Assembly: GCF_000027125.1 (NCBI RefSeq)
Contig: NC_017626.1
Direction: 5' to 3' (one strand)
Length of the DNA: 64,000 bases
DNA from: Escherichia coli 042
Lineage (GTDB): Bacteria > Pseudomonadota > Gammaproteobacteria > Enterobacterales > Enterobacteriaceae
In this document: positions 3,814 to 24,235 of the stretch, piece after piece
Layout: the number at the start of each line of letters is the position of its first letter
How positions within the stretch are numbered: position 1 is the first letter of the stretch
The notes under the pieces: generated by a model
The model's input: the letters and a program-made list of their open reading frames with translations, nothing else
What the model was told of the DNA's origin: nothing
Database searches by the model: none
Made by a program: the position numbers and the translations under genes

Positions 3814-3912
3814 CATGTCTAGCAGAGTCTACTGAGAATTGCTAGAAGCTACGCATTATGGGACCCTTATATGGACCCACCGACTGGGTCCAATAATTTG
3901 AGGGTCCAATAC

Positions 3913-5142
3913 ATGGCAAGGCAGACTAAAAAACTCACAGACACTGAAATCAAAAACACCAAACCAGCAGACAAAGAGATCAATCTCTTCGATGGTGATG
4001 GGCTACTGCTACGAATCGCTCCTTCATCAAAAGGAGGGAAGAAGAACTGGTATCTCAGATATCCAGTGCCAGTAACCAAGAAGCGCACCAAGATGAGCTT
4101 GGGTACCTACCCTCACCTCTCATTAGCAAAGGCAAGAGCTTTGCGTGATGAATACCTGTCGTTACTTGCTAATGGTGTTGACCCTCAAGTCCACATCACT
4201 GAAAAAACTAATGCTCTGAAAGATGCCACGGAGCACACGCTACAAGCAGTTTCTCGAAAGTGGTTAGATGAGAAAATTAAGACTTCTGGCATCTCTCTAG
4301 ACCATGCAGAAGATATCTGGCGCAGCCTCGAAAAAAACATCTTTTCAACTCTGGGTGATGTTCCTATCAAAGAGATCCGCCCCAAAATGCTCAAGCAGCA
4401 TCTTGACCCAATTGAGCAGCGCGGTGTTCTCGAAACTCTACGTCGTATAATTTCCAGACTGAATGAAATCTTTCGCTATGCTGCCACGGAAGAGCTTATA
4501 GAGTTCAATCCTGCCGACAATCTCGCTCAGCGTTTCAGTAAACCTAAGAAGCAAAACATGCCTGCCCTTCCACCTGATGAGCTACCACGCTTCATGGTTG
4601 CTTTATCTAACGCATCTATACGGTTAGAAACCCGTATGCTGATCGAGTGGCAATTGTTGACGTGGGTAAGGCCCGGTGAAGCCGTTCGGGCAAGATGGTG
4701 TGATATTGATGAAGAGAGCAGATTTTGGAATATCCCTTCAGAATTCATGAAAATGAAACGCCCACATAAGGTTCCATTGAGTAAAGAAGCTCTCCGCATT
4801 TTAGAAAACATGCGCCCTATCAGTGGTCATAGAGAATGGGTTTTCCCCAGCATCAAAGCTCCCCTCAGTCATATGCATGAACAAACAGCTAATGCAGCCA
4901 TAATTCGTATGGGGTTTGGCGGAGAGCTTGTTGCTCATGGTATGAGATCTATTGCAAGGACAGCAGCCGAAGAATACGGTAAGTTTAGAACGGAGGTGCT
5001 TGAATCCGCTCTGGCTCATACTAAAAAAGATGAAATAATAGCCGCGTATAACCGTTCGGAATACCTAGTTGAAAGAGAAGAACTAATGAAATGGTGGGGG
5101 GATTATGTCAGCAGCAAAAAATATAAGATGATGGCAGCATAA
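3913..5142 (+). CDS. Tyrosine recombinase / integrase, P4 family
   Basis: MARQTKKLTDTEIKNTKPADKEINLFDGDGL... with C-terminal R..HGMRS..A....Y catalytic-region pattern; similar to but diverged from K-12 IntA; ATG at 3913 preferred over ORF-track start 3871. Confidence 0.88.
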   Translation: MARQTKKLTDTEIKNTKPADKEINLFDGDGLLLRIAPSSKGGKKNWYLRYPVPVTKKRTKMSLGTYPHLSLAKARALRDEYLSLLANGVDPQVHITEKTNALKDATEHTLQAVSRKWLDEKIKTSGISLDHAEDIWRSLEKNIFSTLGDVPIKEIRPKMLKQHLDPIEQRGVLETLRRIISRLNEIFRYAATEELIEFNPADNLAQRFSKPKKQNMPALPPDELPRFMVALSNASIRLETRMLIEWQLLTWVRPGEAVRARWCDIDEESRFWNIPSEFMKMKRPHKVPLSKEALRILENMRPISGHREWVFPSIKAPLSHMHEQTANAAIIRMGFGGELVAHGMRSIARTAAEEYGKFRTEVLESALAHTKKDEIIAAYNRSEYLVEREELMKWWGDYVSSKKYKMMAA

Positions 5143-5163: not shown

Positions 5164-6501
5164 ATGACACAGCATAAGGTGAAAGTAATGAGAATATCAA
5201 AAACATTAGAATCATTATTTACATTTCTAAAGGAAAAAGAGCAGAAAGGTCAACTATTCAATAAAGAGGCTATACTCACAGCCACCGGTTGGAAAGCGGC
5301 TACATTTAGAACTTATTGGGTTAAAGGGCAGTTATCTGACTTTATTAGCGCAATTGATGAAGATACATTTGAGGCATCAAACTGTCAAAACATCTCAGTT
5401 ATAGAGTTTTCGAAACTATTATCTCAAAGTAAGCATAGAAGAGGGTTAGGTCATAATTGCCAGTCGAAACTAGCAAAAGCATTATTAACAAAATCTAGAG
5501 ATAATATGATGCTTGCTCTTGAATTATATAATAGACCTTCAATTGAGAATAGAATGGATGCATTTGTAATGTGTTTTTGCACTTCATGGGAACAATTATT
5601 AAAAGCTATTTTGATTGAAAAAAATGGTGAAGAGTCAATTTTCAAAAAAGAAAACAAGCGAGGATTCAGAGAAACTATTTCACTAAGAGACTGCTTAGAA
5701 AAAACATTCCCATCGAATTCAAAGGTAAGAAATAATATAGAACAAATAACAGTTTTCAGAGATCAGGCTGTACACCTTTTAATGCCAGAAATACAAGGGA
5801 TAGCCTCAAGGATATTTCAGTCTGGCGTTCTTAATTATTCATCATATTTTGAAAAATTCACAGAGGTTTCTTTTCTCAATAACAATAGCACAGGAATGAT
5901 ATCCTTGGTAGGTGAGTTTAGAACACCGCCAATATCCGTACTGAAATCCATTTATGGAGAAGTAGCGACTGATATATTAGACTTAGCAACAACTCTTCAG
6001 CAAGAAGTTGATGATAAAAATGACATAGAGTATGCAATTCCCTTAAATGTAAAACTTGTTTTTGCGACATCAGATGATGATGGGAATACCATAACCTTAG
6101 CTAAAGCTGATGAGGGAATCGAGGGGCTTAAGAAGGCTCTAATTATAGAAAAACCAGTAGATAGATCAAGAACACATCCGTATTTGCAGAAGGATGCCAT
6201 TGAGCATATAAATGAAAAAATCTACGAACTTTATAGTATAGAAAAGATAGAAAAGCATTTAGTATTCAAAGATAACAAAACAGGAAAGAAAGCGATAAAT
6301 AAAAATTGCTTTGATGCTGTTATTTGTAAGAACGGATGGAAAAAATCAAATAATAAATATCATCACAAAAACAATAATCCAGAATACCACTATTATTCAC
6401 CAGCATTAGTAGATGAATTTGTCAAGAAAGCTATGACAAACGAAGATTATCTAATGAATACAAAAAAATGGTATAATGCCAGAAGAAGTAAGAAAAAGTG
6501 A
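5164..6501 (+). CDS. Hypothetical protein, about 437-445 aa, low GC, Lys-rich C-terminus
   Basis: Long ORF; alternative ATG at 5188 has an AAGGTG Shine-Dalgarno; no family assignable by eye. Confidence 0.6.
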   Translation: MTQHKVKVMRISKTLESLFTFLKEKEQKGQLFNKEAILTATGWKAATFRTYWVKGQLSDFISAIDEDTFEASNCQNISVIEFSKLLSQSKHRRGLGHNCQSKLAKALLTKSRDNMMLALELYNRPSIENRMDAFVMCFCTSWEQLLKAILIEKNGEESIFKKENKRGFRETISLRDCLEKTFPSNSKVRNNIEQITVFRDQAVHLLMPEIQGIASRIFQSGVLNYSSYFEKFTEVSFLNNNSTGMISLVGEFRTPPISVLKSIYGEVATDILDLATTLQQEVDDKNDIEYAIPLNVKLVFATSDDDGNTITLAKADEGIEGLKKALIIEKPVDRSRTHPYLQKDAIEHINEKIYELYSIEKIEKHLVFKDNKTGKKAINKNCFDAVICKNGWKKSNNKYHHKNNNPEYHYYSPALVDEFVKKAMTNEDYLMNTKKWYNARRSKKK

Positions 6502-6835
6502 TGAATAGTGAAACTATGAACAGTACATATCATTTATAAGTGTGCTGTTCATAGTAATTCACAGAACATACTGATTAATTTTATTTTTTCCTAAAACCGG
6601 AAGAAAATAAACCAGTGAAATATTCTTTACATTTAAAATTCGGAGGCCACGGAAATATAAAATCTAATATTAATTACTAATTATATTTATAAAAGGTCTG
6701 CCTCTGACCATTTGAAATGAAAAACAAATCCCAATAATATAGAAAAAAATATCTGATATAATAATTTTGTAGATAAAATAGGCCTATATAAAAACATATC
6801 TTTAATTCCCCCCTTAAAAAGAGGGGCAAATACTG

Positions 6836-7801
6836 TCATTCCTCAAATCTATATAACGCGCCATCAAGATATTCTTCAACAGTATCTATACCGATCCATC
6901 TTCGGTTCAAACTCTCAGCTACAGCACCGGCAGTCATCGACCCACCAAATGGATCAAGAACTAAATCCCCTTCATCTGTAAGCATTTTAATGAAGAATTC
7001 AGGAAGCTGCATAGGGAAACGCGCAGGATGAATTTTGATACCATTAGCTTTACATTTTTTTGTATAAACGTCATTAGCTGCATTATTACCCATTTTCAAT
7101 ACATCAGACGGTGTTTCATCATCAATAAAATTAGGTGGGATAGACCCTCCATTATGGGTTTTATCAAAAGATTCATTAATATTATGTCCTGATGGTCGAA
7201 CAGTAGTTTTAACACCTTTTGCTGCAAGCCGAAGCATGTCCTTGCTATAAGGACGAAGCACTTTTTTATTACTTGCTTTTGGGTGTGGCCCTTTACTAAA
7301 CCAGAAAACATACTCTACAGAATCCTTCACTCGGACTCGTTTGACTGTAACCCATTGAGCAGGTACAGGCATCTTTGCAGGGTTGTACCAGAAAGTCTCT
7401 TGCGCTAGTCTGAATCCTACTTCCTCAACTAAAGCAATAACTAACTTAAAATGATAGATAGATCTAGTTGGCTCACCGGGATTCCAAGAGCCCCCGATGT
7501 TCAAAACGAAACTGCCATCTTCTGTCAGTATCCTTTTGATTTCTTTCGCAAAATCAACAAACCACTCAACGTAGTCCTTCTGACAGACATTACCATATTC
7601 TTTCTTAAAATGAAGTGCATATGGTGGAGATGTGAAGACTAAGTTAACCGAGTTATCAGGTATTGACTTCATCACGTCTAACGAATCGGCGTGGAAGATC
7701 GAACCCAAGTTAGATTCGTAAAACGGTTCAAACCCGTTGACTAACTTTGTAGTTGAATTTTTCTCTTTTGATGAAAAGTCAAGCGTTTTTTGAATAGTCA
7801 C
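6836..7801 (-). CDS. DNA methyltransferase, beta-class amino-methyltransferase (N4-cytosine or N6-adenine)
   Basis: Motif IV TSPPY near the N-terminus and motif [11 protein letters not shown] near the C-terminus (order IV then I); no ATG upstream of the conserved N-terminal region, so start is GTG at 7801 or GTG at 7882. Confidence 0.8.
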
Positions 7802-7869
7802 AACAATAAATCTCGAAATGGGCAATCGGATTGCATTGTTGCGTACATAACACAAGGGATCAAGTACAG

Positions 7870-8559
7870 ATGAACCAACCACAGGACTTTACAGCTCTTC
7901 TTAACAGCTTAACTCCTCAAGAGCAGCAAATGCTTTTCACGCAACTTCGCGGAAGAATTCCCATCCATCCTCTTGAACAGCAATGGAATATTACAGCAGA
8001 ATTCATTTTAGAAGCCATTGCGCGAAGCCAAGATATCACGAAACGAGGCGTAAGAGGAATCATTGCAGAGCTATGTTTCGATACATATATCATAGGTGCA
8101 ATGAAACATAAGGGCTGGATACAACATCAACTTTTTGGAGATTTACCCTATGATGCACTGATTTCTCATCCTCATGTCGGGGAAATAAAAATACAAACTA
8201 AAAACCAACGACTTGAACGTGGAGTCCCAAAATACGCAAATGGACCAATGATAAAATTCAATCCATATGTCGAAGGTTGGTATGTTTGCGAAACACAGAA
8301 AACGAGGACAGGAAAAAATGCGGAAGGGTTAGATACGAGGCCATATAGATTTGGTGAGTTTGATATACTATCAGTTTGCCTCCATCCGTCATCGGGTGAT
8401 TGGACACGATTCATGTTTTGCCCTGCATATACACTAATGCCAAGAGCGACAAATCCTGAACTAATTGCTGTTTTACAACCAGTACCACCTACACGACAAG
8501 GAAATTGGACTGATAATCTTGAGGAAGCGATTGAATGGCATTTGAACCGTAATCGTTAA
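7870..8559 (+). CDS. Putative restriction endonuclease partner of the methyltransferase (PD-ExK-like motif)
   Basis: Divergent from the methyltransferase with a short shared control region; ATG at 7870 has an AAGGG ribosome-binding site; motif [18 protein letters not shown] fits D...ExK. Confidence 0.45.
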
Positions 8560-9204: not shown

Positions 9205-9516
9205 TCACTCCTGCCTCCCAATCATATCCCCAAGAAACCTTTTTCCTCGTAATTTTAATCTTGCTTTATCTTCAATGCTAATATTCGATAATTGTAATAT
9301 CAGTCCTAATATTAACTCCTTATCTACCTCTTCTACTTTACAGCCCATAGCTTTAGCTACCTCAGCACCAAGGATGATCTTCAAGCGTGTCTCTGCGCTC
9401 TTGGATAGAGATTTTTCTTTACTCTTAAGGCGATTCAGACGCATTTGAGCTGATGCTATTTTTTGCTTAATGGTTTTTTCTGATCTCGGCTTTCTACCTT
9501 TATCATCCGTATTCAT
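9205..9516 (-). CDS. mobC: MobC-like mobilisation accessory protein
   Basis: 103 aa basic protein; RL..L....E.R.K.ILGA.VAK pattern resembles RSF1010 MobC; divergent from the relaxase across the oriT-like region. Confidence 0.6.
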   Translation of the reverse strand: MNTDDKGRKPRSEKTIKQKIASAQMRLNRLKSKEKSLSKSAETRLKIILGAEVAKAMGCKVEEVDKELILGLILQLSNISIEDKARLKLRGKRFLGDMIGRQE

Positions 9517-10351: not shown

Positions 10352-11860
10352 ATGGCTATTTTTCATCTGGATTTTAAAATTGTGAAACGTTCTGAAGGCA
10401 GATCTTCCGTTGCGAAAGCTGCCTATCATGCTCGTACACGTATAACAGATGAAAGAACAGGTGATACCTATGATTATAGTCGCCGTACCGATTTATACGG
10501 ACATTTCATATTAGCACCAATTAATGCTCCAGAACATATCGTGAAAGACTCTACAGCATTGTGGAATGAAGTTGAAAGAGTTGAGCGCCAGAGCAATGGT
10601 CAAACATCCCGTTATTTCGATGTTGCCATACCTGCCGAGTTAAACAATGACGACAAGAAAAGACTTGTCCTTGAGTATTGTCAGAAAAATTTCGTTGATA
10701 AAGGCATGATTGCCGATATCGCTTTCCACGATCTTGATAGCGATAATCCTCATGCTCACGTTATGTTGACATTAAAAACCATAGGCCCTGAAGGTTTTGG
10801 TAAAAAAGAAAGAAGCTGGAACGACAGAAAAATGTCTGTTATATGGCGTGAATCATGGGCATCTATGGCTAACAGCTACCTTGCTGCCGCTGGCTCGTCA
10901 GAACGTATTGACCATCGTTCTCTTCAGGCCCAGCATGAAGAGGCATTAGAAAAAGCGGCGGTAGCTTTAGATAATGAAGAAAAAGCGCTATGGCTTGCTA
11001 AAGCCGCTGAAACAAACCGTCCTCCAATGAAGCGTATCCATAGTGCCAAATGGCGTAGTAAAGCAGCACAAGAGCAAAGAGCAGCAGAACAGGCTGTTCG
11101 TGATGCTGCCAAGCAGGAAGCGGTTGAAGTCTACAAGACTTTCAGCGAACTTGATCTTGAAATCGTCGTTGATGTCAGAAGCTTCACCGTGGCTGCTCTT
11201 GCTGAACCAGAAGAGATTGTATTACCAGAAACGCGCTCCGGCTCTTCTTCTCATGAAGCACAAAGTCCTGTATTGGTAGCGCCTATTCCTCATACTCATG
11301 TGCGTGGAGTTAAATCTTACCGCGATAAAGAAAAAGTGAGTAAAGTTGTCATTAATAATATATCAGAACCAAATGTTGCTGATGCTGACATAAACACTCT
11401 TTGGAAAACATCTCCATCTAAAACCAAAAATATGGCATCCAAAAGTACCGCTGAAAGTGTTAAAAGGAAACAGGCTAATCCGCGTCAGGATAATATCTTT
11501 AAACGCTTTACAACGCTTTTGATCGGTTTCTTCAAAGAGAAATTTATATGGGCTAAGAAGAAACCTGATCCTACCGAGATTGAACATGACAGGCATGTAG
11601 CAGAAAATTACGTCTTTGATGAAGTGCTGGGTGTCTATGTATCACGCGCTGACCATGAACAACGAGCCAGATTCAACGGTGATGATAAAGAGTTCTCTGG
11701 TTACAAGCCAACACCTGATGAGATTAAGCGTTTTCCAAGCCGTCTAGCTAATACAGCACAAACTGATAGAGAGCTCGACTACATGCCTTCGCTCGTGGCT
11801 GATAAGAAATCGTTAGCACCTAAATTGAAACCAAATGCTCCCTATAAAAATAGATTATAA
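10352..11860 (+). CDS. mobA: Relaxase, MobA/MobL (MOBQ) family
   Basis: N-terminus MAIFHLDFKIVKRSEGRSSVAKAAYHARTR and NPHAHVMLT (HxH) motif parallel RSF1010 MobA (MAIYHL..., NPHCHLMIS). Confidence 0.85.
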   Translation: MAIFHLDFKIVKRSEGRSSVAKAAYHARTRITDERTGDTYDYSRRTDLYGHFILAPINAPEHIVKDSTALWNEVERVERQSNGQTSRYFDVAIPAELNNDDKKRLVLEYCQKNFVDKGMIADIAFHDLDSDNPHAHVMLTLKTIGPEGFGKKERSWNDRKMSVIWRESWASMANSYLAAAGSSERIDHRSLQAQHEEALEKAAVALDNEEKALWLAKAAETNRPPMKRIHSAKWRSKAAQEQRAAEQAVRDAAKQEAVEVYKTFSELDLEIVVDVRSFTVAALAEPEEIVLPETRSGSSSHEAQSPVLVAPIPHTHVRGVKSYRDKEKVSKVVINNISEPNVADADINTLWKTSPSKTKNMASKSTAESVKRKQANPRQDNIFKRFTTLLIGFFKEKFIWAKKKPDPTEIEHDRHVAENYVFDEVLGVYVSRADHEQRARFNGDDKEFSGYKPTPDEIKRFPSRLANTAQTDRELDYMPSLVADKKSLAPKLKPNAPYKNRL

Positions 11861-12628: not shown

Positions 12629-12947
12629 ATATTGAATATTAGAAAAGCACTCAAGCAGTGCTTTTCTAAATACCATACTCATTTCATTATAAATGAACCT
12701 CGATTTTAATAATTTATACCCTGCCCCCATAATCTTTAATTGCCATATTTATTAATACTGAGATTTAAGCTGTGAGATATATATTTAATATAAAACCACG
12801 ATCGTGTGATAAGACGTTTTCTATATTTACTGGAAATATTAAAATCAAACTCTCCGCTTAAACATAACATTATCATTTATGCCTTGCTATTGGTAAGTAT
12901 TAATTTTTTATCTATACAAGAATCTATTATTCAGATAAAGATTCATC

Positions 12948-13208
12948 TTATTCCGCCCTGTCATAAAAATAAAATGACCAAGCATCACAGAACCATTTAA
13001 TATTTTTATCATCAGATGGATATTCATATCCTTTAAGATTCTCTTTGAGAAAAGATATTTGTGATGGCATCAGCATCCCAACAAGTATCTTTATTAGATC
13101 TTCTGAAGGATATTTATCAAACTCATCTCTGTTAATACCTGTTTTTTCTTCAATGATCACTGAAGCTTTAACTATCTCACATAAAACATCATCTTTTTTA
13201 TTTCTCAT
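12948..13208 (-). CDS. Hypothetical small protein (about 86 aa)
   Basis: ATG at 13208 preceded by AAGGAG Shine-Dalgarno; ORF-track start 13292 less likely. Confidence 0.5.
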   Translation of the reverse strand: MRNKKDDVLCEIVKASVIIEEKTGINRDEFDKYPSEDLIKILVGMLMPSQISFLKENLKGYEYPSDDKNIKWFCDAWSFYFYDRAE

Positions 13209-13379
13209 TATTATCTCCTTTATTGTTTTATATTTAATACCATATAAACAATAAATGTCAAAAATATTTAAAGACAATTTAAGAACAATCAACCCTGAAT
13301 GTATTTGATATGTTGTTCAATACAATAAGCCCTGTATCAAACAGGGCTATATGAATTAAAGGTTACAGATTAAAAAAAC

Positions 13380-14030
13380 TTACCAGCTATCATTATTTCG
13401 CTTTTCAATTGCATCACGATAACGCTGTTGTTCCACAACATCCAGATTTGGATCAAATAACACACTTGATCCTTTCACAGCAATATCGGCATCAATCTCT
13501 GATTGGGGAGCATAGGCCTTATAACCATTAGGCTGTGAAGTGGCTGTGCGGATATATGTCCCATAGTGTTTCCCATTCATAGAACAACCGATGTAAGCCA
13601 ACAGGCAGGCAAACAGGAAAAAGAATGTCCATACTGTATTATAGCCGTTAATCGTATATCCACTTCCATTCACATCTGAAAACACGCCATTAAACCTGAC
13701 CGCATAGACAATCAGGAACGATGAAAGGATAACGGTTCTGCTTTTACCAACAGTTAAATGTTTACGCACAAATTTCACTGTTGGTAGTAGAGTGACCATA
13801 AAAAGAGCGATAGCAACACATACCAGCCATATAGGAAACAGTCCATATTTTTGTGTAATGTTCTGCGATACCGTCACCAAGGACAGCACCAAGAAGGCGT
13901 TGAGCAGAAAAAGTCTGACCGCCATCCATACCTTCACGTTCTTTTGCGTCTTACGGAGAAACAGCATCGGAGTCAGTGATGGTATGTTCATCAGCAGACC
14001 GATGATAAGCACCCAATAGATAGAGTTCAT
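13380..14030 (-). CDS. Polytopic inner-membrane protein (216 aa), unknown function
   Basis: Several hydrophobic helices; last gene of a three-gene minus-strand operon. Confidence 0.6.
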   Translation of the reverse strand: MNSIYWVLIIGLLMNIPSLTPMLFLRKTQKNVKVWMAVRLFLLNAFLVLSLVTVSQNITQKYGLFPIWLVCVAIALFMVTLLPTVKFVRKHLTVGKSRTVILSSFLIVYAVRFNGVFSDVNGSGYTINGYNTVWTFFFLFACLLAYIGCSMNGKHYGTYIRTATSQPNGYKAYAPQSEIDADIAVKGSSVLFDPNLDVVEQQRYRDAIEKRNNDSW

Positions 14031-14046
14031 AGCGTTCTTCCTGTAA

Positions 14047-14601
14047 TTACCGGGCTTGCCAACCGTTATTGATTTTCACCAGAACAATTTTGGCTTCTTC
14101 TGGTTCAGACATCCCTTTCACGCCAGAGAAGGCATTTTTATCAACCCAGCCCGGCACGCCATCCAGTTTCCACGTATAGGTCACTTGCGTCATTTTAACG
14201 CCATTACCCTCACTCGGTTCAGTCCAGCTTTTAACCTCAGCTACGGCACGGTGACCAACACAGGCACCATCTTTACGATCCCAAAACTCAACCTCTTGGC
14301 CTTTGTCTGTTACTTCCAGAACATCTACGCTGCTAAAGCCGTTAGGTTGCTGCGAAACATCAAGCAGTCCCTGATTAGCCAGACCTTTCAAGATTTCATC
14401 ACTGGCACTGTATCCAGCAGAACGATAGCCATGGTTGACCTTAACCGGAAAACCTTTATTGAACGTAAAGTCATTGTCCTGAAGGGAGTAGCAGACCTTA
14501 GATTTTGATATATGCTCGTTTATCGCTTTCTCAAAGTCGCCTTTTTCACCGCAGCCTGATAACAACACGGCAAGTCCTGCAATGACTAAAAATTTACTCA
14601 T
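14047..14601 (-). CDS. Lipoprotein (184 aa), unknown function
   Basis: Signal peptide with lipobox LLSGC (MSKFLVIAGLAVLLSGC). Confidence 0.65.
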   Translation of the reverse strand: MSKFLVIAGLAVLLSGCGEKGDFEKAINEHISKSKVCYSLQDNDFTFNKGFPVKVNHGYRSAGYSASDEILKGLANQGLLDVSQQPNGFSSVDVLEVTDKGQEVEFWDRKDGACVGHRAVAEVKSWTEPSEGNGVKMTQVTYTWKLDGVPGWVDKNAFSGVKGMSEPEEAKIVLVKINNGWQAR

Positions 14602-14615
14602 GGTTCTTATTCCTT

Positions 14616-15194
14616 TTAATGATTGATAGTGCCGTTTCTCAGAACAACCAGACGAACTGGCATATCGGCATTGTTTACTGTGGCGAAGCCACGAACTTCG
14701 AAGTTGTTGACTGTTCCAGTGACACTGACTTTCTGGCCTTTCTTGTAAGTAAGAACCGCATCATCAATACCAGAGTAGTAATCCAGCCAGACCATCCCGC
14801 CGCAGTAGCTTGTATCGGCTGTTTTAAAGAGCAGATAATAATTAGGGGCTGATTTGGGCATTCCCGTCATCATATCGCTGGCACTTCTGCCCTTCGTAAC
14901 CTCAAGAACAGTGGCATTGGTGATAGCGATCCTTTTGCCAGTCCATTTTTTTTCTGCTGCCATCGCATTTTCTTCATAGTCTTTGCAGACAGCACCAAGG
15001 CCAGTAATGGACGTCGCTGGACCACTATCCTGACCGGAAGCTGAAACCCGCAGCGCTTTATCAACGGTGCTGTTCAATGATGCCAGTGAAGAGTTAATTG
15101 CCCCATTAACGCTATTCACGCCTTCGTTGAGTTGCTGGCAGCCAGAAAGAAACACCAGAGAGATCGCCAGTGGTAAGAAGTTATGTCCTTTCAT
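14616..15194 (-). CDS. Lipoprotein (192 aa), unknown function
   Basis: Signal peptide with lipobox FLSGC (MKGHNFLPLAISLVFLSGC); first gene of the operon. Confidence 0.65.
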   Translation of the reverse strand: MKGHNFLPLAISLVFLSGCQQLNEGVNSVNGAINSSLASLNSTVDKALRVSASGQDSGPATSITGLGAVCKDYEENAMAAEKKWTGKRIAITNATVLEVTKGRSASDMMTGMPKSAPNYYLLFKTADTSYCGGMVWLDYYSGIDDAVLTYKKGQKVSVTGTVNNFEVRGFATVNNADMPVRLVVLRNGTINH

Positions 15195-15317
15195 TTATTC
15201 CTCAAGGATTTAGTCAGATTCGTATACCCCAATCCCGGCGCACTGACCTATAGATCAGGAGTTATCGTCTAATCAATTGATAGAATTGAATTATTTTTAG
15301 TGTTCGTCACATCGTTT

Positions 15318-15460
15318 AAATCGATCGATATAAAACAAATGATAGACTCAGGCTATCATAGATAATATATCGATCGATAATATCAATTAAAAAACCGATC
15401 GATAAATCACTTTCAATCGTTAATGCCTATCAATATAAATTTATCGATCGATTTTACAGA
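15318..15460. promoter_or_regulatory. Four copies of the palindrome (A)TCGATCGAT(A), each with a Dam GATC site, in the divergent promoter region
   Basis: Copies near 15321, 15370, 15396 and 15444 with spacings about 49/26/48 bp; additional inverted repeat GATAG-N7-CTATC at 15341-15359. Confidence 0.6.
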
Positions 15461-15529
15461 TCATTTTGCTTGAGTATGTTGGCACTGGCGGCTATGCTGG
15501 GCTGAGATAAAGCAGTAAAACAGAGAGGG

Positions 15530-15985
15530 ATGAGCATGGAAAACAACAACGAGCGAAGCTCTATGGAAATCTTCGAAAAAGATCAAAAAATCGCTTTTGT
15601 TGACTCGTTCAGCGATGCTGCTTTGTCTTACGAATACGAACAGGCGGGCTTCACCATTAATTTAATGCAACGCTCGGTTCTTCTCTTTAACCATAATATA
15701 AAGAAAAACGTAACTGCCAAGCAGTTGCGTAAAAATAATATAAAGAATAACGTAATGTCTTCGACATTGCGTAAAAATATGAACAGCACATTTATATATT
15801 CATATAACAACATCAGGGAAATCAACTACTCGCTGCCTGATTGCAGATCCGATGATGCCGAGAACTGTATTATGATTGATGATGTATTAAATCCAGTCTG
15901 GACGTTCAGGGTTCCATCTCACGCACATTATATTTGCGAGCAATGGGTGGAAGTATTTAATAACCATATTTTCTTTGACCCATAA
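15530..15985 (+). CDS. Hypothetical protein (151 aa)
   Basis: ORF downstream of the GATC-palindrome region; low GC. Confidence 0.5.
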   Translation: MSMENNNERSSMEIFEKDQKIAFVDSFSDAALSYEYEQAGFTINLMQRSVLLFNHNIKKNVTAKQLRKNNIKNNVMSSTLRKNMNSTFIYSYNNIREINYSLPDCRSDDAENCIMIDDVLNPVWTFRVPSHAHYICEQWVEVFNNHIFFDP

Positions 15986-16110
15986 ACAAAGTATTAAGCA
16001 AAAGGAAAATAAATATCTGACTAATGATATTAATTAATAGAATTATTTGCTTTTTAGCAAATTAATGTTTAATTATATACACATAGAATAATTGATATCG
16101 AGGTATATTT

Positions 16111-16581
16111 ATGTCTGGGAAAAATCCTTTTTGGAATTATGATTATAATGCGGCGCAACGTAATAGAGAAATTGTAGACTCTTACCAACAGGCAAATGAG
16201 GCAAGGCTGGATTCTCAACAGGCGCAGTTTGAAGCGTCTATGGCTAATGACAGGGTTAGCAGAATACAGATGCAGTTGAATAACACAATCAATAGCCATA
16301 AGAAGGTTGTGGCTGATTATGAGCAACGTCTTGAAGAATATAAACAAAATTTCTTTCGTGTAGCTTTACATAAAAACATTCTCTTCAGAACGGTTCGCAG
16401 ACTTCAGGAGGAATGGCCGGATAAAAATGAATTCATCCTTGATGAAATGCAAAGACAAAGAATTTTGTGTAATCAGCAGGACTATAGAGAAAGATGGTGG
16501 AATGCCATAAAAGATAATAATCTTGCTGACGATTATCTTGAGTTTCCATTTCCTAATAGAGAGATAAAAAACAAACCATAA
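16111..16581 (+). CDS. Hypothetical protein (156 aa), charged and Gln/Glu-rich
   Basis: ORF with ATG start; no recognisable catalytic motif. Confidence 0.5.
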   Translation: MSGKNPFWNYDYNAAQRNREIVDSYQQANEARLDSQQAQFEASMANDRVSRIQMQLNNTINSHKKVVADYEQRLEEYKQNFFRVALHKNILFRTVRRLQEEWPDKNEFILDEMQRQRILCNQQDYRERWWNAIKDNNLADDYLEFPFPNREIKNKP

Positions 16582-16695
16582 TAAGTAATTAACTATTCGT
16601 TCATAACATTATATTTATTTTAATAAGACACTAACCTGCTGTGTCTCCTAAAAACACGCCTATACATCAACCATCCATTTTATGGAATACTCATC

Positions 16696-16974
16696 ATGAC
16701 AACTACTTTGCATCCAAATTACGTTGTTGTATCAAAGCTAATATCTAAGTTTGACATTACACATGATAGTAGAGATGAGAATATTAATATCTTGATTTCT
16801 GTCATTTATGACTTGGATAACGGCAATACAATCGAATACTACATTAATAATCAGGAAGAGGCCGAGAAAAAATGCATTGAGAAAAACAGATTTTCAAGGA
16901 AATTTAAAAACCGCATTGATAATATATCACCTGAAGAAATCCGCTCGGCTAAAGATAATCACAAACCCAAATAA
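16696..16974 (+). CDS. Hypothetical small protein (92 aa)
   Basis: ORF co-oriented with neighbours. Confidence 0.45.
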   Translation: MTTTLHPNYVVVSKLISKFDITHDSRDENINILISVIYDLDNGNTIEYYINNQEEAEKKCIEKNRFSRKFKNRIDNISPEEIRSAKDNHKPK

Positions 16975-17097
16975 TAAATTTGAACTCAGGATGGAACTAA
17001 TGTCTATACCGTATAATGTATTGATTTTGTGCACAGGAACGATTAAAACTATGATGTTATTGCTTGTATTCTTTACCACAAACATTAGGGAAATCGC

Positions 17098-17505
17098 ATG
17101 TCTGATGCTTTAAAGATCATCAACAATATTCGTACTCTCCGTGCTCAGGCTCGTGAACTGACACTCGAAACCTTGGAAGAGATGTTAGAAAAACTCACTA
17201 TCGTTGTAGAAGAACGTCGTGAAGAAGAGGCCTCATTTCTAAAACAGCAGGAAGAGAAACAGGCCAAGCTGGAAGCATTCCGTCAGAAGTTGTTGGAAGA
17301 TGGCATAGACCCGGCAGAGTTGCTTTCAACTGTTAGCCCATCTTCTTCCAAGACAGGAGCGAAACGCGCCCCACGTCCAGCTAAGTATAAATATGTTGAT
17401 ACCGATGGTTCGGAAAAGACGTGGACAGGTCAGGGCCGAACTCCTCGTGCTATCGCTGCTGCGCTCGAAGCCGGTAAGACACTGGAAGATTTCGAGATCA
17501 AGTAA
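17098..17505 (+). CDS. H-NS family nucleoid-associated protein, island-encoded paralogue
   Basis: 135 aa; ...[23 protein letters not shown]...[25 protein letters not shown] parallels the StpA encoded at 50350-50754 in this window. Confidence 0.85.
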
Positions 17506-17517
17506 TCTTCATACCAT

Positions 17518-18066
17518 ATGTCTACCAAATCCGCTCATTTTTCTTGGGCGGGTTTGTTGAACCAACCTACAGGGATTAACATGCCAATAAAAGAGTTCTT
17601 AATTATGAAATCAAAAGCCTTTATTAACTTCATGCGCACTGAACTAAAAAACACATTTACAACTTCTCCTTGCGAAAATAAATTAAGAAAGGCTATTTTT
17701 ATTTTTTCTTTATTAAATGCCTTAAATATCATAGGTTATTACATCCTCACATATAGTATGCAAATCCTGTTCCTGTTGCCTATTATTTGGGGAGGGTTAT
17801 TAGCACACGGGACTTACAAACGCTATGGAGATTTGCTTAGATCTGGTTCTGATTGTGCTCTTTTTCTGGTGGCTACTATTACATCAGCATATCTCGTCAT
17901 TAACACAGCAAGTGATGATGTCGATTTTTTTGAAAAGCATATGATAAATGGATTAGGTTTTTTGATTACATATGTTTTTGCTGTAGCTGCATCCGTTCGT
18001 TTTTATATCAGTGCAATAGATTTATATAATAGCTTTATTTCTTTTAAAAAATCAAAAGAAAAATGA
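17518..18066 (+). CDS. Membrane protein (182 aa), unknown function
   Basis: Hydrophobic helices; immediately downstream of the H-NS paralogue. Confidence 0.5.
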   Translation: MSTKSAHFSWAGLLNQPTGINMPIKEFLIMKSKAFINFMRTELKNTFTTSPCENKLRKAIFIFSLLNALNIIGYYILTYSMQILFLLPIIWGGLLAHGTYKRYGDLLRSGSDCALFLVATITSAYLVINTASDDVDFFEKHMINGLGFLITYVFAVAASVRFYISAIDLYNSFISFKKSKEK

Positions 18067-18324: not shown

Positions 18325-19578
18325 TTATTCACTTGCCTGAGTCGCTCTTGTCGCATTTGTTTTTAAATTATTCAGCATTTGCTTATCAACCGGTTGCAGT
18401 TGTTGTCCTAACAGAGCCGCAAGCAAAATATTTGTGTCTTCTGTTCTTTCGATTTGAAGCATTTGTAATCTTAAATCAAGTGCCTGCATTCTTGCCTGCT
18501 CATGCGCAGTTTCTTTTTCATCAGCACTACTGATTTTTACCTGCCAAGCGTCAGCACCTGTTGTATCTGCATAGCGTGAATAGATCTCATATCTTAACAT
18601 TTCCCACTCTGAAGGATTATCCGGGAATGTTGTGCCGGGAAATAAGGTCGCATACTTGTTTTTTACGGAAGCATCTGACCAAGCAAGGTTTGCTCCCTGC
18701 GTAGAGCCCAATGTGGATCCTATTTTGGCCCCTCTGGAGTTCACTGATATATTACTTGCTTTTTTCATTGCCAGTACGGAATCAATGGCGTTTGTTCCAG
18801 CAGTGCTTCTGGAGACAAAGCTCGAAAAGGCCGATAAATATTCTCGACCTTCATTTGTGTCTTCTAATCCTTTGTTCTTCAATGGTTCAACGGGCAAGTT
18901 CCCTATAAGATTTCTTTTTGCCGCTTCAGCAACCTCAATCTGCTCAACAGAATAGGACTGATTCGAAACCTTATTAGACAATGCATCGGATTTAGATAAT
19001 GGTGGTGTAATCAGGCTTGATGCCGACTTATCTTTATCAGGATACTGACCTATAGTATTACACCCACCTCTGTTATATTTCACATCATCTTCGGAGCAAA
19101 CATTTATTGATACTCTGCCCATGATGTTTTTCTTGGCCTCATTTATTCTGGTATTTGCTTGTGTAAACATCTTAACGCTGTTTTCAGATAAAGCCTCTTT
19201 AGCTGAGCTTGTATTCGATCCTGCTGCACCACGACCACCTGCGCTCGTGACTTCTTCACAGGCGTTGGCATCAGGTATTCTGTTTAAGATATTTTTCATG
19301 CGCTGTTCTTGGATTGCCTGACTGGCATTACTGACAACCGCATTCTTCTGATTCTCACTGGCTGTTATGGTTGCTTGTGCCAGCTTGTCGTTCATTGAGA
19401 CTAATGTTTCAATTATTCCATTGCCCATAGATTGGGGTGAAGCCCCCATAAGATACGGTGTCAAAACCTCTTCTGTGACGGGCCAGACAGCGAAAGCTGT
19501 ATTTGTATATAATACAGAAAAACACAAAGCTGAAACCACTGTTATTCTCTTTACTTTAAATTTATTATTACTCATCAC
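18325..19578 (-). CDS. Secreted/periplasmic protein (417 aa), unknown function
   Basis: N-terminal signal peptide (…LYTNTAFAVWP); third gene of a three-gene minus-strand cluster. Confidence 0.6.
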   Translation of the reverse strand: MMSNNKFKVKRITVVSALCFSVLYTNTAFAVWPVTEEVLTPYLMGASPQSMGNGIIETLVSMNDKLAQATITASENQKNAVVSNASQAIQEQRMKNILNRIPDANACEEVTSAGGRGAAGSNTSSAKEALSENSVKMFTQANTRINEAKKNIMGRVSINVCSEDDVKYNRGGCNTIGQYPDKDKSASSLITPPLSKSDALSNKVSNQSYSVEQIEVAEAAKRNLIGNLPVEPLKNKGLEDTNEGREYLSAFSSFVSRSTAGTNAIDSVLAMKKASNISVNSRGAKIGSTLGSTQGANLAWSDASVKNKYATLFPGTTFPDNPSEWEMLRYEIYSRYADTTGADAWQVKISSADEKETAHEQARMQALDLRLQMLQIERTEDTNILLAALLGQQLQPVDKQMLNNLKTNATRATQASE

Positions 19579-19948: not shown

Positions 19949-22609
19949 TCACATTCCATCATTACCTTCTTTTGATGATGAACTACCACCGGAAGATCCA
20001 CTACCGCTCCCTTTCTCTGGAGCCTTAAAGCTTTCAATTGGTGAAGCTTGGGCCTGTAAACTTACAGGCAGCAACGGTCTGTTATGTTCACCAAACGATA
20101 CCGCTCTGTTAGCAGCCTTTTGAGCTACATTCATATAACCTGCTGCGCCTGCTGTATCACCAATAGCATCTGCTGCCTCAGCTGCATGGTAAGCCGAGTT
20201 AGCACTTTCAAGAGACTGATATTCATCCTGCTGATCAAGTGGGCCAGCATTACTCATATGAGTTCTGAATGCAGATCCCGTATCATTGGCTTTATTAGCC
20301 GCCAGTGCTTTCCCCTGTTGAGCCTGTTGCTGTTGTTGAAGCTCACGTTGCTGTTCACGGTCTTTGTTAATTTGCGCATTCCTGATCTGATTACCCATCG
20401 CATTTGAGGTATGGGAAACCTGATCCAACACGGTTTTGGTAAACATAGCACCTTCAACACCTTTTGATGCCGACTGTGCGTAACCCGACATGCTCTGACC
20501 ACCATGAACACCAAGCCACTTCATAATTTCATCAGGGATGATGTGAATCAGTGAAAGTGATTTCTTCACTACCGTGAACATCATTGCAATATAAACAGCA
20601 ATGAGAGCCAGTGACTCGATGATACCTATCCCGGCATTGGCTGACATCATGCCAAAAGCGCCGGAGAATGTTTCGTTGACGATCCCACCAAGGATAGGGA
20701 GCATCGTATAGGCTGCTATTAATCCTGTTATCATTAGCGCTGGTCGCATGGTTAACGATAAAACCAGACCATAACCAGCGCCACCACGACCCACTACGCC
20801 ATCACCATCTGGATGTAAATGTGTTATTACCCATAATGGTGCTGCGACCATTGCTTCAAGGCACAGGATCATCCAGCCTACGCAAACACCAAACCACATG
20901 ACGTAAGGCAGCATAGGAATGACGACGGCTAAAGTATCGCCAGCTATCCATAAAGGGATAACCAGTGGCATAACAATCCCCATAGCGCCAAATGCACCCG
21001 ATACCCAGCTTGCAGTCGCTGATGTCCATGCGCCAAGACCTGCCCCAACAACAGCAGAACTCCCTAATAACGTCCAGCCAGCGGCACTGATCGTATCCCC
21101 AAGCCCTTTAACAGCTAATAACGGGTTTATTGCCTGTAAATTGGCAGCGGTTGTGTCCGTCGAGAACGAGACGATTTTCCCTTGTTTTCTTCCATTGATA
21201 ACGCTGGAACTGAGAAAACCCGCCATTGCACCAGAAATGCTCTTATTGGCTTCACTTTGAAGAGAAGAAACTATTTTTCCAGCATCATCTGTTTTAGGGC
21301 CTACACCACTTTTACCACTGGTATTGGCTTCCGTTCGGTTTTGCGCATCAATACCATTCGCATATCTTGAAGCTGTCGTTGATTTCGCCATATCTTGAGC
21401 CACTTTTGCCATAATCGCGTTCAGGCTGTTATCGAATATATCTCCGTATTCCATTGTCGCTTGCCCGGCTACAGGAAGATTATGAGCTGCTCCATTAATC
21501 GCATCCTGCACACGGATCAGTTTCATACTCCATGCGCCAGCCATAAACCATCCGTCTTTCTGGACATTCTCTTTGAAATCATCCCACTGGTCGCCAGTGG
21601 AGAAAACTGTTCGTACTGCAGTATCAATAATGGATACATATGAGGCCGTTGCGCTGTTTATTCCGGTCTGAATATCAATATTATTATCGGCCACATACTG
21701 TTCAGCCAGCGTTTTCATACTATTATCAAGGCCGATAAATGCGGCATTGTGTGCCTCAATAACATCTGAAATATTCGTCTTTATATCCTGTGGCATATAA
21801 GCCATATACATGCCGCCAGCAGCAATGGTAGCCTGAGCTTTAGCCTGTTCGTCATAAGAAGCTTTGGCCTTCGGGTCTGTAAGCGTGATGCTTCCACATG
21901 CAGCCTTGGATACCAGTAAATTTTTATTCATATCATTACCGGCATTGCTGGCTCCATAACTGTATGTGTATAAATAGGCACCTTTCTCCGGTGTCATTTC
22001 AAACGCAGGCGTGACGTGCGGGAAGGGATCGGCTGCTGCTGATTTCTTCCATAATTCTCCCGCCTTTAACATACAGACGTTATTGATAAAGGCGGTTTTC
22101 GCTATGCGATCAAGCTCCTGATAAGATGCAGATGTGGTAATAACAGCCCCATCTGAGGGGTTGGATGCATAGGTATTCCAGACGGTATCTGCCAGACCGA
22201 CTCCCTGATTAATCATCCACAGCACCATAACCTGAGCGGCACAGAAACCACCTGCTGCCGGGAGTATCATTGCCGTGCCTAATGCAGTTCTTACGGGCAA
22301 CCACATGGAAGACCATTTCTTACCCAGCATTTCTCCGTCATGTGCCGTTGACATGGTTCCGGCAATCAGTGTGTAGGCAGCTAAAATGCCACCAACCAGT
22401 AAAACAGCGCTGTTAAGGATTGTCATTGTGCTGGCTAAGGGACTTTCCGCTAAATTGTCCGGGAATAAGATATCCAGAAACCACAGCTTTGATTTGTCTG
22501 TCTCCGGGACGGTAAATAAATCTGCGGCATAAGCTGACTGAGTTAATAACAGGCAAGCTAATATTACTAATAATATCGATACTTCTTTTTTCTTTATATT
22601 TATCATCAT
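19949..22609 (-). CDS. Large polytopic membrane protein (886 aa) with signal peptide and Gln-rich / Gly-Ser-rich C-terminus; possibly mating-pore related
   Basis: Signal peptide ...LLTQSAYAADL; many hydrophobic segments; C-terminal ELQQQQQAQQ and GSGSGSSGGSSSS low-complexity runs. Confidence 0.6.
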   Translation of the reverse strand: MMINIKKKEVSILLVILACLLLTQSAYAADLFTVPETDKSKLWFLDILFPDNLAESPLASTMTILNSAVLLVGGILAAYTLIAGTMSTAHDGEMLGKKWSSMWLPVRTALGTAMILPAAGGFCAAQVMVLWMINQGVGLADTVWNTYASNPSDGAVITTSASYQELDRIAKTAFINNVCMLKAGELWKKSAAADPFPHVTPAFEMTPEKGAYLYTYSYGASNAGNDMNKNLLVSKAACGSITLTDPKAKASYDEQAKAQATIAAGGMYMAYMPQDIKTNISDVIEAHNAAFIGLDNSMKTLAEQYVADNNIDIQTGINSATASYVSIIDTAVRTVFSTGDQWDDFKENVQKDGWFMAGAWSMKLIRVQDAINGAAHNLPVAGQATMEYGDIFDNSLNAIMAKVAQDMAKSTTASRYANGIDAQNRTEANTSGKSGVGPKTDDAGKIVSSLQSEANKSISGAMAGFLSSSVINGRKQGKIVSFSTDTTAANLQAINPLLAVKGLGDTISAAGWTLLGSSAVVGAGLGAWTSATASWVSGAFGAMGIVMPLVIPLWIAGDTLAVVIPMLPYVMWFGVCVGWMILCLEAMVAAPLWVITHLHPDGDGVVGRGGAGYGLVLSLTMRPALMITGLIAAYTMLPILGGIVNETFSGAFGMMSANAGIGIIESLALIAVYIAMMFTVVKKSLSLIHIIPDEIMKWLGVHGGQSMSGYAQSASKGVEGAMFTKTVLDQVSHTSNAMGNQIRNAQINKDREQQRELQQQQQAQQGKALAANKANDTGSAFRTHMSNAGPLDQQDEYQSLESANSAYHAAEAADAIGDTAGAAGYMNVAQKAANRAVSFGEHNRPLLPVSLQAQASPIESFKAPEKGSGSGSSGGSSSSKEGNDGM

Positions 22610-22625
22610 TACATTCCTTTGCCTC

Positions 22626-23150
22626 TTACTTCATTGAATTACTGATGCTGCTCCAGACATCGTTTCCGTTGACTGTTGCTCCCGATCCTGATGAAGAGCC
22701 AGTTCCTGTAGAAACACTTCCATTTGCGATATTCCCAATCACGGGCATATCAATAGAAATGCTTTCGGATATACTTCCGGTCAGTTGACTTACTTTTTCC
22801 CTCGCAATCGAACAGGCTTTACTTATTGCTGCTTCCTTCGTTTTTTTAATTATTGAATCCACAGATGGCAGGCTGATGCCGAGGTTACCCACAGGCCAAG
22901 CGTCCGTACAACCAATCGTCTCAAGTGACTGATTGATGTTATCCATGAAATTCTTCGCTACCGGCTCTAACTGAGCCGCATCCTGCTTCATTGCGTTATA
23001 TTGCGCTTGTTTTAATGATGAGCTGACATCCGGGCTACAGACTGCTGCATTAGCTGTGGTTGCTGAAATTAATATTGTTGCGGGAAGGATTATTTTGAAA
23101 ATGCGGACACAGACATTTGTTCGCCATTTATTTTTATTAAGTTTATTCAT
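22626..23150 (-). CDS. Secreted protein (174 aa), Ser/Gly-rich C-terminus
   Basis: Signal peptide ...ISATTANAAVCSP; 16 nt upstream of the 886-aa gene. Confidence 0.55.
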   Translation of the reverse strand: MNKLNKNKWRTNVCVRIFKIILPATILISATTANAAVCSPDVSSSLKQAQYNAMKQDAAQLEPVAKNFMDNINQSLETIGCTDAWPVGNLGISLPSVDSIIKKTKEAAISKACSIAREKVSQLTGSISESISIDMPVIGNIANGSVSTGTGSSSGSGATVNGNDVWSSISNSMK

Positions 23151-23470: not shown

Positions 23471-24235
23471 CTAAATATTATCCCAATCTAACGGTTCTTC
23501 TGGTGGCACAAGACTTGTGTTCTCTACAGAAGGGATTTCATTTATACTTTCACTCTTCACTAACCCTTGAGACTTTTTAGCCTGCAATCTTGCGATTAAC
23601 AAATCTATCTCATCTTGGTTATTAACTTCTTGTATAACTGCTTCAATTGACCTGTTTTTATCTTTAAGTATGCTATTGCCACCGCCATTGACGACTATGC
23701 TTTCGGGTTGTTCTTCCATTGCTTCTTTCTTTTTTATAATCTCTGATACAAAGCGAGCACGATCACCATTGAAGACAATAGCAGGGTTTATGAAATACCA
23801 GTTTTTCTCATTGGTTTTAGCAATAATACGTTTTTCGATGAGTTCTTTGATACCTCTGTAAAAGATAGATTCAGACAAAACAAAGTGATCTATCTTTTCC
23901 GCAAGAGACATTGCCTTTTTACAGCTCAGGTAGAAATGATCTTTGCCTATCGCATCCTGATATATTCGTAAAAATATGAAAAACACTTTGTATGCTGTTT
24001 TCGTGAGATCAAAATATGCTTTTATCTGAGAGGTATAGAGTTTAATGAACTCTTCTTTATCGACCTCTTGTGTATGCACGATATTGGCGAAGTAGCTTTT
24101 ACCTGTATCTTTCTTTTCGATAAGTTCTGTGCCTCTTGAAACGGTCAGATTTTTCTTTCGTGTTTCAATCTTTAGCTCTGTCTCAAAGCAAAAAGGATTT
24201 AACCCTAAATCTAAGTCAACGTCTATTTCATTCAT
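23471..24235 (-). CDS. Winged-helix DNA-binding protein, candidate replication initiator or regulator (254 aa)
   Basis: Central ...SIFYRGIKELIEKRIIAKT...YFINPAIVFNGDR block is winged-helix-like; paralogous layout to the 25693 gene; iteron-like array 170-250 bp upstream. Confidence 0.5.
   Translation of the reverse strand: MNEIDVDLDLGLNPFCFETELKIETRKKNLTVSRGTELIEKKDTGKSYFANIVHTQEVDKEEFIKLYTSQIKAYFDLTKTAYKVFFIFLRIYQDAIGKDHFYLSCKKAMSLAEKIDHFVLSESIFYRGIKELIEKRIIAKTNEKNWYFINPAIVFNGDRARFVSEIIKKKEAMEEQPESIVVNGGGNSILKDKNRSIEAVIQEVNNQDEIDLLIARLQAKKSQGLVKSESINEIPSVENTSLVPPEEPLDWDNI

Follow-up and report, generated by a model that had tools for sequence, protein, structure and literature searches.

A combinatorial lipoprotein and membrane-protein operon of uncharacterised function on an island of Escherichia coli 042

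What do three small envelope genes contribute to the bacterium, or to the mobile island on which they reside? The genes, here called A, B and C, lie at positions 13380-15194 of a 64,000-nucleotide stretch of Escherichia coli 042 (contig NC_017626.1), which is referred to as the window. An earlier note on this DNA described them as an envelope operon of two lipoproteins and a polytopic membrane protein, reminiscent of surface exclusion, superinfection exclusion or receptor masking, and possibly belonging to an undescribed system. Comparison with related loci gave a clear answer on one point: the cassette is combinatorial, and its parts are swapped. As to its role, a mobile-element envelope 'gatekeeper', acting as a barrier to incoming DNA, phage or periplasm-acting toxins, is put forward as a tentative proposal, possible rather than probable. 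This functional assignment is the weakest step of the explanation, and what is said below about function is inferred.

The three genes are arranged head to tail on the minus strand, and the ends of their open reading frames (ORFs) coincide exactly with positions 13380 and 15194. Gene A (15194..14616) encodes a predicted lipoprotein of 192 amino acids (aa), gene B (14601..14047) a predicted SEN1982-family lipoprotein of 184 aa and gene C (14030..13380) a predicted inner-membrane protein of 216 aa. The gaps of 14 nt between A and B (AAGGAATAAGAACC) and of 16 nt between B and C (TTACAGGAAGAACGCT) each contain a Shine-Dalgarno-like sequence, and GAGGAATAA is located upstream of gene A. A hairpin resembling an intrinsic terminator at 13348-13328 on the minus strand, with an 8-bp G+C-rich stem (AGCCCTGT-TTGAT-ACAGGGCT) followed by a T-rich tail (TATTGTATTG), appears to mark the end of the operon. 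Another terminator-like match at 15172-15153 was dismissed because it is situated inside the signal-peptide coding part of A. The prokaryotic genome annotation pipeline (PGAP) called the identical three genes on an E. coli chromosome (L001) with 99.8% identity to window positions 12900-15600. Because the ratio of nonsynonymous to synonymous substitution rates (dN/dS), compared with the loci of Intestinirhabdus, Mangrovibacter and Kluyvera, was 0.13-0.28 for every gene (0.13-0.18 for A), and because full-length homologues number in the hundreds for each protein, A, B and C are taken to be expressed, selected genes rather than chance ORFs, and all three are under purifying selection. Both A and B begin with a basic N-region, a hydrophobic core and an L-S-G-C lipobox; the pattern [LVI][ASTVI][GAS]C, by which bacterial lipoproteins (substrates of Lgt and LspA) are recognised, was found in A as LSG-C19 and in B as LSG-C17. 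Both are predicted to be lipidated and to be exported to the periplasm as lipoproteins. ORFs, gaps, lipoboxes and the island genes described below agree with the earlier picture of two lipobox proteins and a polytopic membrane protein that are encoded by a compact operon in a mobile island.

The survey of related loci comprised 14 loci that carry A, one Citrobacter plasmid (L026) and, from the literature, ROD21 of Salmonella Enteritidis. The order A-B-C of the window was also found in Kluyvera, Intestinirhabdus, Buttiauxella (with a frameshifted C) and Mangrovibacter. A plasmid-borne island of Klebsiella and the loci of Citrobacter, Pluralibacter, Yersinia artesiana and Enterobacter had the order A-B-ZnR, as ROD21 probably does. 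ZnR, which takes the place of C in these loci, is a 91-aa protein unrelated to C with an N-terminal CxxC...CxxC zinc ribbon and two transmembrane (TM) helices. Hafnia had A-ZnR, and in Yersinia thracica A was followed by a 95-aa lipoprotein similar to c92 (see below) and ZnR. In loci L002-L004 (5569-8690) an insertion sequence (IS) element had deleted the 5' half of gene A, and the truncated gene was followed by B', a 422-aa lipoprotein (g422) and C. The Citrobacter plasmid (4321-6669) encoded two unrelated lipoproteins of 92 aa (c92) and 424 aa (c424), followed by a C-like protein with 43% identity to C. Lipoproteins of 92-95 aa and 422-424 aa, unrelated to A or B, can therefore fill the lipoprotein slots. 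The constant pattern was that a single small inner-membrane protein gene came after one to three lipoprotein genes; A held the first and the membrane protein the last position. In the 14 related loci, A was followed by B in 12 cases and by C in only 8. The three-gene unit proposed earlier is present in the window, but the trio is not constant, as C alternates with the 91-aa ZnR.

Identity to the window proteins among the loci carrying A was 79-93% for A, 48-90% for B, which fell into discrete classes, and 69-74% for C. In a single pair of loci the synonymous divergence (dS) ranged from 0.24 for A to 1.28 for B, up to five-fold between genes, which shows recombination inside the operon. The cassette or parts of it were detected in 246 of 5,426 complete E. 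coli genomes, 22 of which covered at least 80% of the 2.7-kb query, and in many strains of Salmonella, Klebsiella, Citrobacter, Yersinia, Pectobacterium and Dickeya. B-like genes were counted on 620 plasmids; 492 of these are conjugative, and IncX4 and IncFII backbones are among the carriers. Distant B-like genes occurred singly on IncX4 backbones, where they adjoin topB-hha-hns, on IncFII/MPF_I plasmids of Klebsiella and on a small mobilisable plasmid of Providencia. Carriage in Enterobacterales was almost exclusively on mobile elements.

The shuffling of non-homologous lipoproteins and membrane proteins, the mosaic alleles and the single B genes on many plasmids would also suit a set of independent orphan immunity genes that a mobile element has gathered against interbacterial toxins, the lipoproteins acting on periplasm-acting effectors and the membrane proteins on pore-formers. 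The fold of B, whose leading matches are protein inhibitors, adds to this. On the other hand, gene order is conserved, with A at the beginning and the membrane protein at the end, and no toxin gene was found nearby in any locus examined. The match to the periplasmic immunity lipoprotein model of the type VI secretion system (NF045617) scored only 16.9 bits against a cutoff of 43 and was limited to residues 4-43, that is, the signal peptide and a short stretch after it. The fusions of B domains to FHA domains or zinc ribbons described below would be unusual for immunity proteins. Taken together, an origin as scattered immunity genes is judged unlikely.

Protein B begins with MSKFLVIAGLAVLLSG followed by the lipobox cysteine, and the residue predicted to be lipidated is Cys17 (codon 14553-14551), with Gly at position +2. 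In E. coli a Gly at this position can sometimes keep a lipoprotein in the inner membrane. An exhaustive HMMER search gave 278 representative homologues of B. Among 75 homologues, with identities down to 24%, the lipobox cysteine was the sole invariant column; Cys37 and Cys114 were nearly invariant, which fits a periplasmic disulfide. The AlphaFold2 (AF2) model calculated from 75 diverse sequences (predicted local distance difference test score, pLDDT, 89.8; predicted template modelling score, pTM, 0.81) showed a helical N-terminal part with a winged-helix-like segment (residues 63-112, approximately) on a cystatin/NTF2-like sheet (residues 112-183). In an alignment of 13 homologues the variation was mostly found at about residues 38-105, and the C-terminal sheet was conserved. 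A Foldseek search against AFDB50 gave 272 matches at E <= 0.001; the best 50 of these included proteins of Proteobacteria, Acidobacteria and Cyanobacteria and were nearly all named just 'lipoprotein' or 'uncharacterized'. The folds closest to B were cystatin/latexin and NTF2-like (including VirB8-like) folds; the leading matches were protein inhibitors, and the scores of VirB8-like structures were below those of cystatins. The label 'Type IV secretion lipoprotein VirB7' among the fold matches presumably reflects the lipid-attachment-site signature only.

In the PGAP annotation, B (WP_000033071.1 on L001) is called 'SEN1982 family lipoprotein'. None of the hidden Markov models of NCBIfam release 20 matched B significantly, and the PGAP name probably comes from another type of rule. 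The source label 'DNA-directed RNA polymerase subunit beta' is regarded as a mislabel, since it had no support in the family scans and the protein is a 184-aa lipoprotein. SEN1982 of S. Enteritidis ROD21 has been discussed in three papers (PMC10655114, PMC6968874, PMC3198454). The suggestion of an undescribed system needs correcting in that B had already been catalogued, although the family is uncharacterised. With the B profile, weak matches to the wing of PadR/MarR proteins were obtained among PDB sequences at positions 63-112 (E = 0.011-0.3), in agreement with the PadR-like Phyre2 match published for SEN1982 (PMC10655114). In that paper SEN1982 was also suggested to act as a DNA-binding regulator. 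The winged-helix-like segment is real, but this role is improbable in the form proposed, given that the protein is exported as a lipoprotein and has conserved cysteines.

SEN1982 also gives rise to the view that the operon is a virulence or host-interaction factor whose envelope lipoproteins aid systemic infection. According to PMC10655114 and PMC6968874, transposon mutants of SEN1982 were attenuated for colonisation of mouse spleen and liver (Silva et al. 2012). This report is secondhand and comes from a pooled transposon screen. Moreover, plant pathogens (Pectobacterium, Dickeya), environmental genera and plasmids harbour the family just as often, and distant homologues are known from Proteobacteria, Acidobacteria and Cyanobacteria with a free-living habit. 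A dedicated role in virulence is regarded as distinctly improbable.

More can be learned from distant relatives of B. In bacteria of high G+C content the B domain forms the C-terminal extracytoplasmic part of larger proteins (P0380, P0382, P0391, P0396, P0405, P0408, P0421, P0425 and P0488), to which it is linked by a TM helix. The N-termini of these fusions are FHA domains, a zinc ribbon or an unnamed beta-rich domain with several TM helices; no NCBIfam model matched this last domain ('RGTIIKVPD...'). P0488 consists of a zinc ribbon, a TM helix and the B domain and parallels the islands in which the gene for a B lipoprotein precedes that for a zinc-ribbon/TM protein. This fusion is the best, though indirect, evidence that B probably works with the membrane protein encoded downstream. 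On a metagenomic contig (L006) the B-type domain is a separate lipoprotein, and its gene is situated downstream of a gene for a membrane protein with the beta-domain and multiple TM helices.

The putative partner in the window, C, has five hydrophobic segments (residues 6-25, 31-58, 60-89, 99-118 and 131-153), followed by a hydrophilic tail of about 60 aa that terminates in the conserved motif VEQQRYRDAxEK. All of its 377 homologues are unnamed. According to the positive-inside rule, applied to the loops RKTQKNVK and VKFVRKHLTVGKSR, the N-terminus of C should be outside and the tail in the cytoplasm, and the soluble part of ZnR is likewise expected to be cytoplasmic. The soluble parts of both partners on the cytoplasmic side, as well as the fusions in which distant B domains are connected across a TM helix with FHA or zinc-ribbon modules in the cytoplasm, would fit envelope sensing, in which B binds a periplasmic ligand or damage and reports through C or ZnR to the cytoplasm, for example to tune the expression or excision of the island. 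One FHA-TM-B fusion gene adjoins a gene for a Ser/Thr kinase, and one beta-domain fusion gene adjoins a gene for an ECF sigma factor, which also favours signalling. However, no recognisable output domain was found in the tail of C or in ZnR, the operon lacks a cognate regulator gene, and B occurs alone on plasmids. Sensing is therefore considered doubtful as the role of the operon.

Protein A starts with MKGHNFLPLAISLVFLSG followed by the lipobox cysteine. Its signal peptide comprises residues 1-18, and the residue predicted to be lipidated is Cys19 (codon 15140-15138); Gln at position +2 predicts sorting to the outer membrane. The lipobox cysteine, Cys70 and Cys131 were invariant across 46 homologues. 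Residues 20-65, approximately, form a tether rich in Ser, Asn and Gly, after which a domain extends from about residue 66 to 192. Residues 69-166 align with PF12869 (tRNA_anti-like; i-Evalue 0.0067, 16.4 bits), a family of often membrane- or lipid-anchored OB-fold proteins, and this family was matched by all 46 homologues at E <= 0.1 and by one of the 46 at E <= 0.001. The same stretch gave sub-threshold matches to a lipoprotein family of Acinetobacter (E = 0.0075) and, over a partial length, to the 'Sie-like' PHROG 8545 (E = 0.0018, 19 bits). The AF2 model of A was unreliable (pLDDT 50.4, with 46 close homologues as input), although the order of helices and strands fits a helix followed by an OB fold. 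A search of PDB sequences with the A profile yielded nothing relevant. A is probably a tethered, disulfide-bonded OB-fold lipoprotein, with moderate confidence in the fold. The likeness to PF12869 is qualified by an E value that falls short of significance and by the low confidence of the three-dimensional model, and PF12869 itself is a family without known function.

Searches of Pfam, NCBIfam, PADLOC and PHROGs gave no significant match for A, B or C, consistent with the earlier remark that no motif was recognisable by eye, and nothing significant for g422, c92, ZnR or the C-like protein either. At E <= 1, none of the anti-phage defence models of PADLOC-DB v2 recognised A, B or C (0 families), and the TraT, TraS, TrbK, Eex and ExcA families were absent from their Pfam-A and NCBIfam matches at E <= 1-10. 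Homology to a housekeeping lipoprotein family, which the earlier note had named as a finding that would speak against its proposal, was looked for and not found; the matches to LptM and LPAM cover the signal peptide only, and a housekeeping lipoprotein was rejected on this ground. A tblastn search of 50,697 phage records (INPHARED) gave no match for B and a single match with E = 0.4 for A, and BFVD gave nothing at E <= 0.001. A phage origin was rejected because of the lack of matches in INPHARED and BFVD. A does not qualify as a member of PHROG 8545 either, as the match is partial and below threshold and has no counterpart in phage genomes. Exclusion or receptor masking is a tentative idea drawn from the architecture and from this one 'Sie-like' match of A.

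Between A and a divergent operon lies a regulatory region (15195-15529). Four ATCGATCGAT-type palindromes are located here, at 15320-15329, 15369-15378, 15396-15403 and 15443-15452. Seven of the eight ATCGATCG matches of the window fall within 15320-15452, against an expectation of 2.3 for the window as a whole. In diverged genera the positions of the 10-bp palindromes are conserved, at -133/-138 and -182/-188 from the start codon of A. Three matches with 0-1 mismatch to tCGATAAATT, the high-affinity motif of H-NS described by Lang et al. (PMC2094087), are present at 15364-15447; one palindrome copy reads TCGATAAATT and equals the motif, and two matches with one mismatch lie within 85 bp. As the conserved palindromes contain the H-NS motif, the operon is probably silenced by H-NS or by its island paralogue and de-repressed together with the island. 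In Salmonella the expression of SEN1982, determined by reverse transcription quantitative PCR, shifts when excision of ROD21 is blocked (PMC6968874). Each palindrome also contains a GATC site for Dam, and a Dam-sensitive mechanism or a dedicated repressor may act there instead.

The proposed gatekeeper would be built as follows. A would be tethered from a membrane by its long linker. B would probably be located on the periplasmic side of the membrane protein encoded downstream, which is C in the window, and form an envelope complex with A; this location is suggested by proteins of other phyla in which a TM helix connects the B domain with a zinc ribbon or FHA domain in the cytoplasm. Specificity would come from the variable N-terminal domain of B. 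The role of the complex would be protection of the island's host, not housekeeping or participation in a secretion machine. This reading draws on the anatomy of the operon, the island context, the modularity and mosaic history, the fusions, the carriage by mobile elements, the weak 'Sie-like' match and the regulation. A more far-reaching version is improbable in its entirety: a modular, hitherto unrecognised class of envelope systems in which a C- or ZnR-type platform carries interchangeable lipoproteins, with a tentative OB fold in A and a winged helix in B, and intercepts phage DNA, conjugative DNA-protein complexes or toxins crossing the periplasm, the N-terminal domain of B determining specificity and H-NS keeping the system silent until the island is activated.

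The surroundings of the operon were identified from the annotation of L001, which is E. coli AHB1, and from the ORF list. Window positions 3-30271 are colinear with AHB1 at 99.5%. The island of about 26.5 kb (approximately 3750-30270) is inserted at the tmRNA gene ssrA (3384-3746). A P4-type integrase gene (3871-5142) is directly followed by genes for a DUF3644 protein and a DNA methyltransferase (5164-7882), a pair that may be defence or restriction-modification-like cargo. TraD (9205-9516) and a MobQ relaxase (10352-11860), convergent with the operon, are encoded next. Beyond the regulatory region, a divergent operon of five genes on the plus strand (15530-18066) encodes proteins of 151, 156 and 92 aa, an H-NS paralogue (17098-17505, plus strand) and a 182-aa hydrophobic ORF, which may be a membrane protein. 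The unassigned proteins of this operon had no family match; the operon is kept beside the cassette in the Kluyvera and Enterobacter loci. Genes of the TraW family (18325-19578) and the DotA/TraY family (19949-22609), named by PGAP on L001 and both on the minus strand, are followed by ORFs without assigned family at 22626-23150 and 23471-24235. A short H-NS-family gene at about 26423-26662 on the minus strand (L001 annotation) precedes a helix-turn-helix (HTH) gene and a DUF6387 gene in the distal part of the island. The adjoining 10.7 kb (30272-41019), which are missing in AHB1, were rejected as part of the island, as they represent the common ypjA autotransporter region present in most E. coli. 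Their absence from AHB1 means that the island abuts different flanks in different strains. A tRNA gene with a CAT anticodon is located at 37995-38070.

The features of the ROD21/EARL islands were all found, namely a P4-type integrase next to a tRNA or tmRNA gene, a small HTH protein of the recombination directionality factor type at the far end, TraD with a MOBQ relaxase, and an H-NS homologue. Judged by this gene content, the island belongs to this family of excisable, mobilisable islands, and the operon is its cargo. EARL islands have been described at Asn-tRNA genes (PMC6035254, PMC10763509). The operon occupies a variable region beside the relaxase gene. MobQ is convergent downstream of the cassette in almost every locus; the exception is found on IncFIB/IncHI1B plasmids of Klebsiella, which keep an IS-flanked fragment with a 5'-truncated A and no relaxase. 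The interval between cassette and MobQ is itself a variable cargo spot whose gene content differs among islands. L019 (9501-11377, minus strand) has a pair of unannotated ORFs there, one of 260 aa and one of 365 aa; L008 encodes a protein of 298 aa and L011 one of 366 aa, and the interval also differs in L014. The 365-aa ORF of L019 looks metallo-beta-lactamase-like by eye.

TraW and DotA/TraY genes are present on the island, and no other IncI-type type IVB secretion genes were annotated there. They could represent a decayed integrative and conjugative element or island-encoded replacement subunits that remodel the mating apparatus of a helper plasmid, as is reportedly the case for SGI1. With these genes nearby, the operon itself might encode a type IVB secretion component, but its proteins did not resemble any known component, and the family is found widely where no type IV secretion system (T4SS) is present, so this identity is unsupported. 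The related explanation that the operon is an accessory to island mobilisation, for example an adaptor to the T4SS of a helper plasmid or a subunit remodelling it, is very unlikely. The conserved transfer core of EARL islands omits these genes, and ICEKp258.2 does not have them (PMC6035254, PMC10763509). The trio also persists on the Klebsiella plasmids as the IS-flanked fragment without a relaxase, the B family is widespread without a nearby T4SS, and VirB8-like structures ranked below cystatins in the fold comparison of B.

If the operon is truly an exclusion or immunity barrier, it would affect the interactions of clinically important strains with phage, plasmids and competitors and would add a family without homology to known exclusion proteins. 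IncX4 backbones and the IncFIB/IncHI1B backbones of Klebsiella often carry resistance or virulence genes. The swapping of parts and the fusions predict which proteins work together, and the palindromes with the H-NS motif offer a handle on regulation. Should it prove to be unremarkable accessory cargo, no more than an improved annotation of the SEN1982 family would be gained. To a specialist, hypothetical envelope genes in such a place would come as no surprise, yet the family is large, associated with mobile elements and completely uncharacterised, and the predictions can be tested directly.

Among known systems, the exclusion pair of the F plasmid consists of the outer-membrane lipoprotein TraT and the inner-membrane protein TraS. 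The cassette resembles this pair in that a transmissible element carries adjacent genes for a lipoprotein and a small inner-membrane protein, one part being conserved and one allelically variable. It differs in that there is no sequence or profile similarity and that the island of the window lacks a complete T4SS of its own. Prophages encode superinfection-exclusion lipoproteins such as Ltp of phage TP-J34, a lipoprotein with HTH repeats, and the receptor blockers Llp and Cor. Extracytoplasmic lipoproteins that reuse nucleic-acid-binding folds are common to both, as B has a winged-helix-like segment and A a weak 'Sie-like' match, but A and B have no homologue in phage genomes or BFVD, the PHROG match is below threshold and the domain architecture is different.

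The closest counterpart is ROD21, in which SEN1981A (264 bp, membrane protein), SEN1982 (lipoprotein) and SEN1983 (a pseudogene annotated as 'exported protein') occur in this order (PMC3198454). SEN1983 appears to be the homologue of A, matched by position and annotation, and SEN1981A was equated with the 91-aa ZnR type by size and position alone. Both islands share a backbone of integrase, TraD, MobQ relaxase and H-NS paralogue, in both the cassette is convergent with the relaxase gene, and the three genes are in matching order. ROD21 is, however, located at an Asn-tRNA gene and the island of the window at ssrA; SEN1983 is a pseudogene, whereas A is intact; and the third gene is the 264-bp membrane-protein gene in ROD21 but that of the 216-aa C in the window, neither version having an established function. 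The copy in the window is thus one more member of a catalogued, uncharacterised gene set. What appears to be new is the combinatorial architecture of lipoproteins and membrane proteins, the fusions that link B to a membrane partner, the high-confidence fold of B and the conserved palindromes with the H-NS motif.

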